Assembly (NCBI RefSeq): GCF_056712565.1
Contig: NZ_CM160072.1
Length of the DNA stretch: 64,000 bases
Direction: 5' to 3' (one strand)
Shown: positions 24,835-24,972 of the stretch, one piece after another
Numbering within the stretch: position 1 is the first letter of the stretch
Layout of the letters: each line of letters begins with the position of its first letter
Notes under the pieces: model-generated
What the model saw: only the letters and a program-made list of their open reading frames with translations
What the model was told of the DNA's origin: nothing
Databases searched by the model: none
Translations under genes and position numbers: made by a program

Positions 24835-24972
24835 ATCGGCTTAACCACTAAACACTCTAGCCTCTGCACCTGGGTCAACTGATACGGTGCTTTGGCCGTG
24901 ACAATGCTCGTAAAGATTGCCACCAGGGCGAAGGAAGAAATGACTTCGCCTCCCGTATCTGGAAAGGTGTAC
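24835..24972 (+). promoter_or_regulatory. moaA 5' leader, probable molybdenum-cofactor (Moco) riboswitch
   Basis: Structured leader immediately upstream of moaA with cgaaggaagaaatgacttcg hairpin and cctcc/ggaaagg segments around the RBS; position matches the moaABCDE leader. Confidence 0.55.

Follow-up and report, generated by a model that had tools for sequence, protein, structure and literature searches.

The 5′ leader of the moaABCDE operon very probably carries the E. coli moaA Moco riboswitch, an OFF switch that acts in cis. We scanned the window (the whole 64-kb stretch of DNA that was analysed) with Rfam 15 at gathering thresholds and obtained two matches, RF01055 (Molybdenum/Tungsten riboswitch aptamer, the Moco motif) and naRNA4. 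RF01055 matched 24841-24985 on the plus strand with 103.4 bits (E = 1.2e-24), well above its gathering score of 36 bits, and the match spanned model positions 1-135 of 135. The RefSeq feature named 'molybdenum cofactor riboswitch' converted exactly to the same window coordinates, 24841-24985. The element lies directly 5′ of moaABCDE and overlaps the start of the operon.

A preliminary description of this DNA had proposed a probable Moco riboswitch in the moaA leader at 24835-24972, and both the covariance model and the RefSeq feature bear this out. It had also suggested that a Moco covariance model should give a significant match ending at the moaA ribosome-binding site (RBS). When restricted to 24700-24972, RF01055 gave 88.6 bits (E = 1.1e-22), and this match was truncated at its 3′ end. 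The long structured leader with CCUCC and GGAAAGG segments was found as described, with GCCUCCC at 24949-24955 and GGAAAGG at 24961-24967. The proposed span was right in that a structured element lies there, but the element runs past 24972, because stem P1 extends to 24979 across the start codon.

The riboswitch is already known and already annotated, and finding it here is ordinary. It adds nothing to the catalogue: a riboswitch class was founded on this RNA in 2008, and the NCBI pipeline annotates it in essentially every complete E. coli genome. The locus is useful as a positive control, as a regulatory RNA was recognised from the sequence alone and the right test was proposed. The window gives no new handle on which molybdopterin species binds and how.

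Identity with the K-12 RNA

The segment 24577-25100 was 100% identical to E. coli ATCC 11775, and it was present in 5424 of the 5426 complete E. coli genomes. The aptamer was at least 99% identical in 5396 of these 5424 genomes, whereas the surrounding 524 nt reached this level in only 1127. This difference indicates that the aptamer is under stronger constraint than its flanks. The search of the E. coli genomes also returned two copies of the leader on plasmids.

Three positions (24625, 24783 and 24841) distinguish the leader of K-12 MG1655 from that in the window. Only the last one falls inside the Rfam match, where it is the first, unpaired nucleotide (T here, A in K-12), and 24842-24985 was identical to K-12. 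Thus, the RNA tested experimentally in K-12 (Regulski et al. 2008, PMC2408646) is the same RNA. The locus, the genes and the five stems are the same, and the GAAA tetraloop, P3 and the Shine-Dalgarno (SD) sequence within P1 are all common to the two. Outside the aptamer, the two leaders are distinguished by the polymorphisms at 24625 and at 24783, the second of which is in the spacer of a ModE palindrome.

Stem anatomy and the ribosome-binding site

We mapped the Rfam consensus structure onto the window. All five stems, P1-P5, could be mapped, and 34 of the 41 consensus pairs were standard pairs in the window. The 5′ strand of P1 (24843-24857) pairs with a 3′ strand (24966-24979) that spans the start codon. 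The outer pairs of P1 (24843-24979, 24844-24978 and 24846-24976) reach 7 nt into the moaA coding sequence. On the 5′ side, the inner helix comprises 24852-24855 plus 24857, with U24856 bulged. P2 is a hairpin of 24860-24870 and 24886-24896 with three internal mismatches, and it is extended by a distal stem of 24874-24876 and 24881-24883. P3 (24898-24902 / 24919-24923) has four standard pairs out of five and a loop at 24903-24918. P4 (24926-24936 / 24941-24951) is capped by a GAAA tetraloop at 24937-24940. P5 is a stem of two base pairs, CC at 24952-24953 with GG at 24961-24962, and encloses a 7-nt loop.

Among the conserved junction nucleotides of the RF01055 alignment, CCAGGG, GCCUCCC and UGGAAAGG were all present. 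The junction CGAGCC reads CUAGCC in the window, which is a single change from G to U at 24858.

The purine-rich RBS, GGAAAGGUG, is at 24961-24969, and its 3′ part (24966-24969) belongs to the 3′ strand of P1. Such an RBS within P1 has been described for E. coli (Regulski et al. 2008, PMC2408646). The preliminary description had assigned the sequestering of the RBS to the CCUCC and GGAAAGG segments. In the consensus structure, however, GGUGU (24966-24970) is paired with ACACUC (24852-24857), so that the latter is the anti-SD strand, and CCUCC is divided between P4 and P5 instead. Its CCU serves to close P4 on the 3′ side, and P5 is made up of the following CC and the first GG of GGAAAGG.

The internal loop of P2 at the position of a tetraloop receptor reads CCUGGG/UACGG (24869-24874 / 24883-24887), compared with CCUAAG/UAUGG in the canonical 11-nt receptor. 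We found CCUGGG/UACGG at this position in E. coli, E. albertii and Citrobacter, and CCUGUG/UAUGG in Enterobacter. Vibrios, aeromonads and others had the canonical CCUAAG/UAUGG or close variants of it. The change in the enterics may be related to the P2 that was reported to be unstructured when ligand-free RNA was probed in-line.

Evidence for the fold

We surveyed species-representative genomes by a DNA-pattern scan for the shared P4-P5 core, which gave 120 loci. The window and 21 gamma-proteobacterial leaders (n = 22) were aligned with MAFFT by sequence only, and this unfitted alignment was scored with the structure derived from Rfam. In total, 79.1% of the cells were paired, compared with 34-46% when the 3′ partners were slid by 1-3 columns. 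Covariation was 0.414, compared with about 0.1, and the observed values were not equalled in any of 500 shuffles. From the MAFFT alignment we built a covariance model, which recovered 102 matches spanning Bacillota, Actinomycetota, Chloroflexota, Deltaproteobacteria and other groups. Among these 102 homologues, 85% of the cells were paired, covariation was 0.516, and 34 of the 41 pairs had changes on both sides. Because this larger alignment was fitted to the model, it is biased in favour of the structure, but the unfitted alignment gave a concordant result. The slid controls across both alignments gave 34-47% paired cells and covariation of about 0.1. The inner helix of P1 was the weakest by covariation, with 60-70% of the cells paired, and P5 was invariant among the homologues. 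The five-stem fold P1-P5 is thus supported by covariation in the 22 and in the 102 homologues.

Thermodynamic prediction was less informative. The minimum free energy (MFE) of the 145-nt RNA had a z-score of -1.57, and 14 of 200 shuffles folded at least as well. Single-sequence thermodynamics alone would therefore not reveal the element. We also folded the growing transcript and found that P2, P3 and P4 each appeared in the MFE fold once transcribed. For a transcript ending at 24972, just before the AUG, the MFE fold was the complete P1-P5 architecture (-37.9 kcal/mol). The Rfam pairs scored directly gave -26.6 kcal/mol, a value that understates the fold, as the comparison with this consensus-like MFE shows. 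Only after the first codons were added did another structure win, by about 4 kcal/mol. The full-length MFE fold (-42 kcal/mol) is thus not the consensus, and it also pairs the SD sequence. As a result, no clear ON conformer emerged from thermodynamic prediction.

In this lower-energy fold, the SD region (24965-24971) is taken up by the 5′ strand of P2 (24865-24871), and CCGUAUC of the P5 loop (24953-24959) is paired with GAUACGG (24881-24887). If it were the functional structure, its energy (-42 against -37.9 kcal/mol for the consensus-like fold) would be accounted for, and so would the published in-line probing of ligand-free RNA, which did not fit much of P2. Comparative evidence is against it. 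In the two alignments, its pairing was 66.2% and 59.8%, compared with column-shuffle means of 65.1% and 59.0%, and its covariation was 0.161 and 0.132, compared with 0.150 and 0.122. Double changes and pair types also had counts within the range of the shuffles. The consensus fold had 79-85% paired cells and covariation of 0.41-0.52 in the same alignments. We therefore rejected the lower-energy fold as a conserved conformer, since its pairing and covariation were near the column-shuffle means, and we give practically no credence to its being the functional structure. Specifically in enterics, it could occur as a transient conformer of the ligand-free RNA, which would fit the failure of in-line probing to support much of P2.

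Regulation in K-12 and the sensed metabolite

The regulatory behaviour of this RNA has been described in K-12. When the 149-nt leader was fused in frame to lacZ behind a constitutive promoter, expression was repressed more than threefold upon induction of Moco synthesis (Regulski et al. 2008, PMC2408646). Repression was lost with mutations that disrupt P3 (M1) and regained with compensatory ones (M2) (Regulski et al. 2008, PMC2408646), and deletion of P3 also abolished regulation. Repression requires modC (molybdate transport), mogA and moeA, and mobA is dispensable. These requirements point to Moco itself, rather than to molybdate or bis-MGD. Tungstate does not trigger repression in K-12.

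P3 is the mark of the Moco type, as opposed to a proposed tungsten-cofactor type. About half of the 102 homologues lack P3, and the window RNA has it (24898-24923). The variants without P3, which are proposed Tuco/Wco sensors, share the junction and P1, P2, P4 and P5, and they match the same covariance model. As P3 is present in the window RNA, we rejected the tungsten-cofactor variant for this locus.

On these grounds the leader would work as follows. The five-stem aptamer would fold co-transcriptionally around the conserved multistem junction, with the GAAA tetraloop of P4 positioned for docking into P2. Moco, when abundant, would bind at the junction and lock P1, whose 3′ strand (24966-24979) holds the 3′ part of the SD purines and the AUG, so that initiation at moaA would be blocked. 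The block would in turn impose feedback repression on the synthesis of the Moco-pathway enzymes.

We infer direct binding of Moco to the leader RNA. In the published work, binding of Moco or of an intermediate to the RNA in vitro was never demonstrated, owing to the instability of the cofactor. Structural work mentioned in reviews is limited to the ligand-free RNA and to pockets that bind Mg2+, and a paper of 2024 states that the exact regulatory metabolite had still not been identified. The label 'riboswitch' in its strict sense thus rests on genetics, conservation and architecture. Another explanation would be that a Moco-sensing protein binds the conserved RNA and that the RNA itself is not a direct sensor of the cofactor. 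The original authors did not rule out a protein factor, and proteins do bind this aptamer, CsrA being an example. However, an RNA of more than 130 nt with five covarying stems in many phyla is typical of riboswitch aptamers. The variants with and without P3 segregate with Moco and tungsten-cofactor metabolism, and no such protein factor has been reported since 2000. A protein sensor for the leader is unlikely, and we consider it very improbable that the RNA serves only as the docking site of one.

Expression platform

Moco RNAs with a terminator platform, e.g. those of Clostridia and of the tandem arrays of S. wolfei, belong to the same aptamer class as the window RNA. They carry an intrinsic terminator after the aptamer, whereas in the window RNA the RBS is built into P1 instead. 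We found no intrinsic terminator on the plus strand from the aptamer to 25600. Two terminator-like sites at 25242-25263 were rejected as a platform because both are on the minus strand. As there is no intrinsic terminator downstream, the expression platform is the occlusion of the SD sequence and AUG by P1, i.e. it is translational.

Several observations nevertheless point to transcription. Expression of a fusion of the moaA 5′ UTR and ORF was more than twofold higher in a rho R66S mutant. In the supplement of Adams 2021, a significant Rho region is given at K-12 817336; its window equivalent is about 25265, inside moaA and about 290 nt from its start. The same supplement lists a strong RNA 3′ end on the plus strand at K-12 817052, which we mapped to 24981 through identical flanking sequence. 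In the output of TaRTLEt, an RNA-seq tool of 2025, the E. coli Moco riboswitch is classed as transcriptionally active. All of these would be expected if the switch acted mainly by premature termination, through Rho or otherwise, and not by blocking initiation. However, the plus strand downstream of the aptamer is without an intrinsic terminator, P1 contains the SD sequence and the AUG, and a review describes CsrA as an activator of moaA translation. The 3′ end at 24981 is 2 nt past the last pair of P1; it was scored as not Rho-dependent (Adams 2021 supplement) and could be a stop of an exonuclease at the base of P1. Moreover, action of Rho inside the ORF is expected from blocked translation, as untranslated moaA mRNA would be exposed to Rho-dependent termination there, and it complements the translational explanation more than it competes with it. 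We therefore regard premature termination as the main mode of action as extremely unlikely.

Blocked translation by P1 remains our preferred explanation, and its simplest extension is that termination by Rho is coupled to the switch through it. The simplest reading of the end at 24981 would be that it marks a pause or the trimming of the RNA by an exonuclease up to the aptamer base. The composition of early moaA, profiled in 80-nt windows, had no striking C-rich and G-poor skew, so the sequence is uninformative about Rho loading.

According to a review of the primary study, CsrA binds two sites in the aptamer and activates moaA translation, apparently by exposing the SD sequence. The aptamer contains exactly two GGA motifs, one in P4 (24933-24935) and one adjoining the SD sequence (24961-24963). 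Judging from the motifs, these two are most likely the CsrA sites.

The 3′ end at 24981 also raises the question of what becomes of the aptamer itself. A free fragment of about 139 nt (about 24843-24981) may accumulate from it. It is improbable, in our estimation, that this fragment is released as a stable RNA with a second, trans-acting role beyond control in cis. If it were, the released aptamer might, for example, titrate CsrA through its two GGA motifs or buffer free Moco.

Promoter region and locus

The segment 24835-24972 is the 3′ part of a 396-nt intergenic region between yvcK/ybhK (23668-24576, minus strand) and moaA, which are divergent. The moaABCDE operon is annotated in RefSeq at 24973-27676 on the plus strand. 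Its first gene, moaA (24973-25962), begins with the ATG at 24973 and matched the equivalog TIGR02666 with 369 bits. It is followed on the same strand by moaB (25984-26496), moaC (26499-26984), moaD (26977-27222) and moaE (27224-27676), all annotated in RefSeq; moaB, moaC and moaE also reached the scores of the MoaB, MoaC and MoaE equivalogs.

According to published work, the leader is 131 nt long, the S2 start is at -87 relative to S1, and the cloning primer begins with AACCACU. From these data we infer S1 at about 24843 and S2 at about 24756. Transcription from the ModE-dependent S1 or from the FNR-dependent S2 would thus produce the leader. A putative -10 element of S1, TAGTAT, is at 24831-24836 on the plus strand, with the start at about 24843 (AACCACU...). 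Our scan of the leader for a consensus sigma-70 promoter found none, as expected for the activator-dependent promoters S1 and S2.

Candidate sites for both activators were found on the plus strand. An inverted repeat of the ModE operator type, CGCTATATA-N6-TACATAGCG, is at 24774-24797. A pattern derived from this palindrome together with the known modA operator matched exactly twice in the 64-kb window, compared with 0.00 matches expected by chance. The second match is a perfect modA ModE operator, CGTTATATTGACGCCTACATAACG, at 3222-3245 on the plus strand, directly upstream of modA (start at about 3265). An FNR-like site, ATGAT-N4-ATCAA, is at 24710-24723, about 40 bp upstream of the inferred S2.

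Some variation was seen in this region. The 6-nt spacer within the ModE palindrome reads TATGAT in the type-strain allele and CATGAT in K-12, with T and C, respectively, at 24783. In E. coli strain 774 (NZ_CP183138.1), the match to the intergenic region between yvcK and moaA was divided between two places, with the break at about 24695, upstream of the FNR-like site. The promoter region of moaA may therefore have undergone an insertion or a rearrangement in that strain.

Other observations in the window and among the homologues

The molybdate regulon is in the same window as the moa operon. In the matching ATCC 11775 record, modF, modE, acrZ and modABC are annotated at about 500-5800. The same record gives ybhI, an anion permease, as a pseudogene with an internal stop; its coordinates, converted from the record, are about 10063-11496 on the plus strand. 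The naRNA4 match (RF02564, a nucleoid-associated ncRNA with REP-type paired hairpins) is at 45217-45287 on the minus strand and scored 72.7 bits, with a gathering score of 59.5.

Several metagenome-assembled genomes had many copies of the Moco motif. For example, it was found on five contigs of a Dehalococcoidales genome (L018-L022) and on five contigs of one Actinomycetota genome (L006-L010). At another locus (L073), two copies lay on opposite strands about 200 nt apart.
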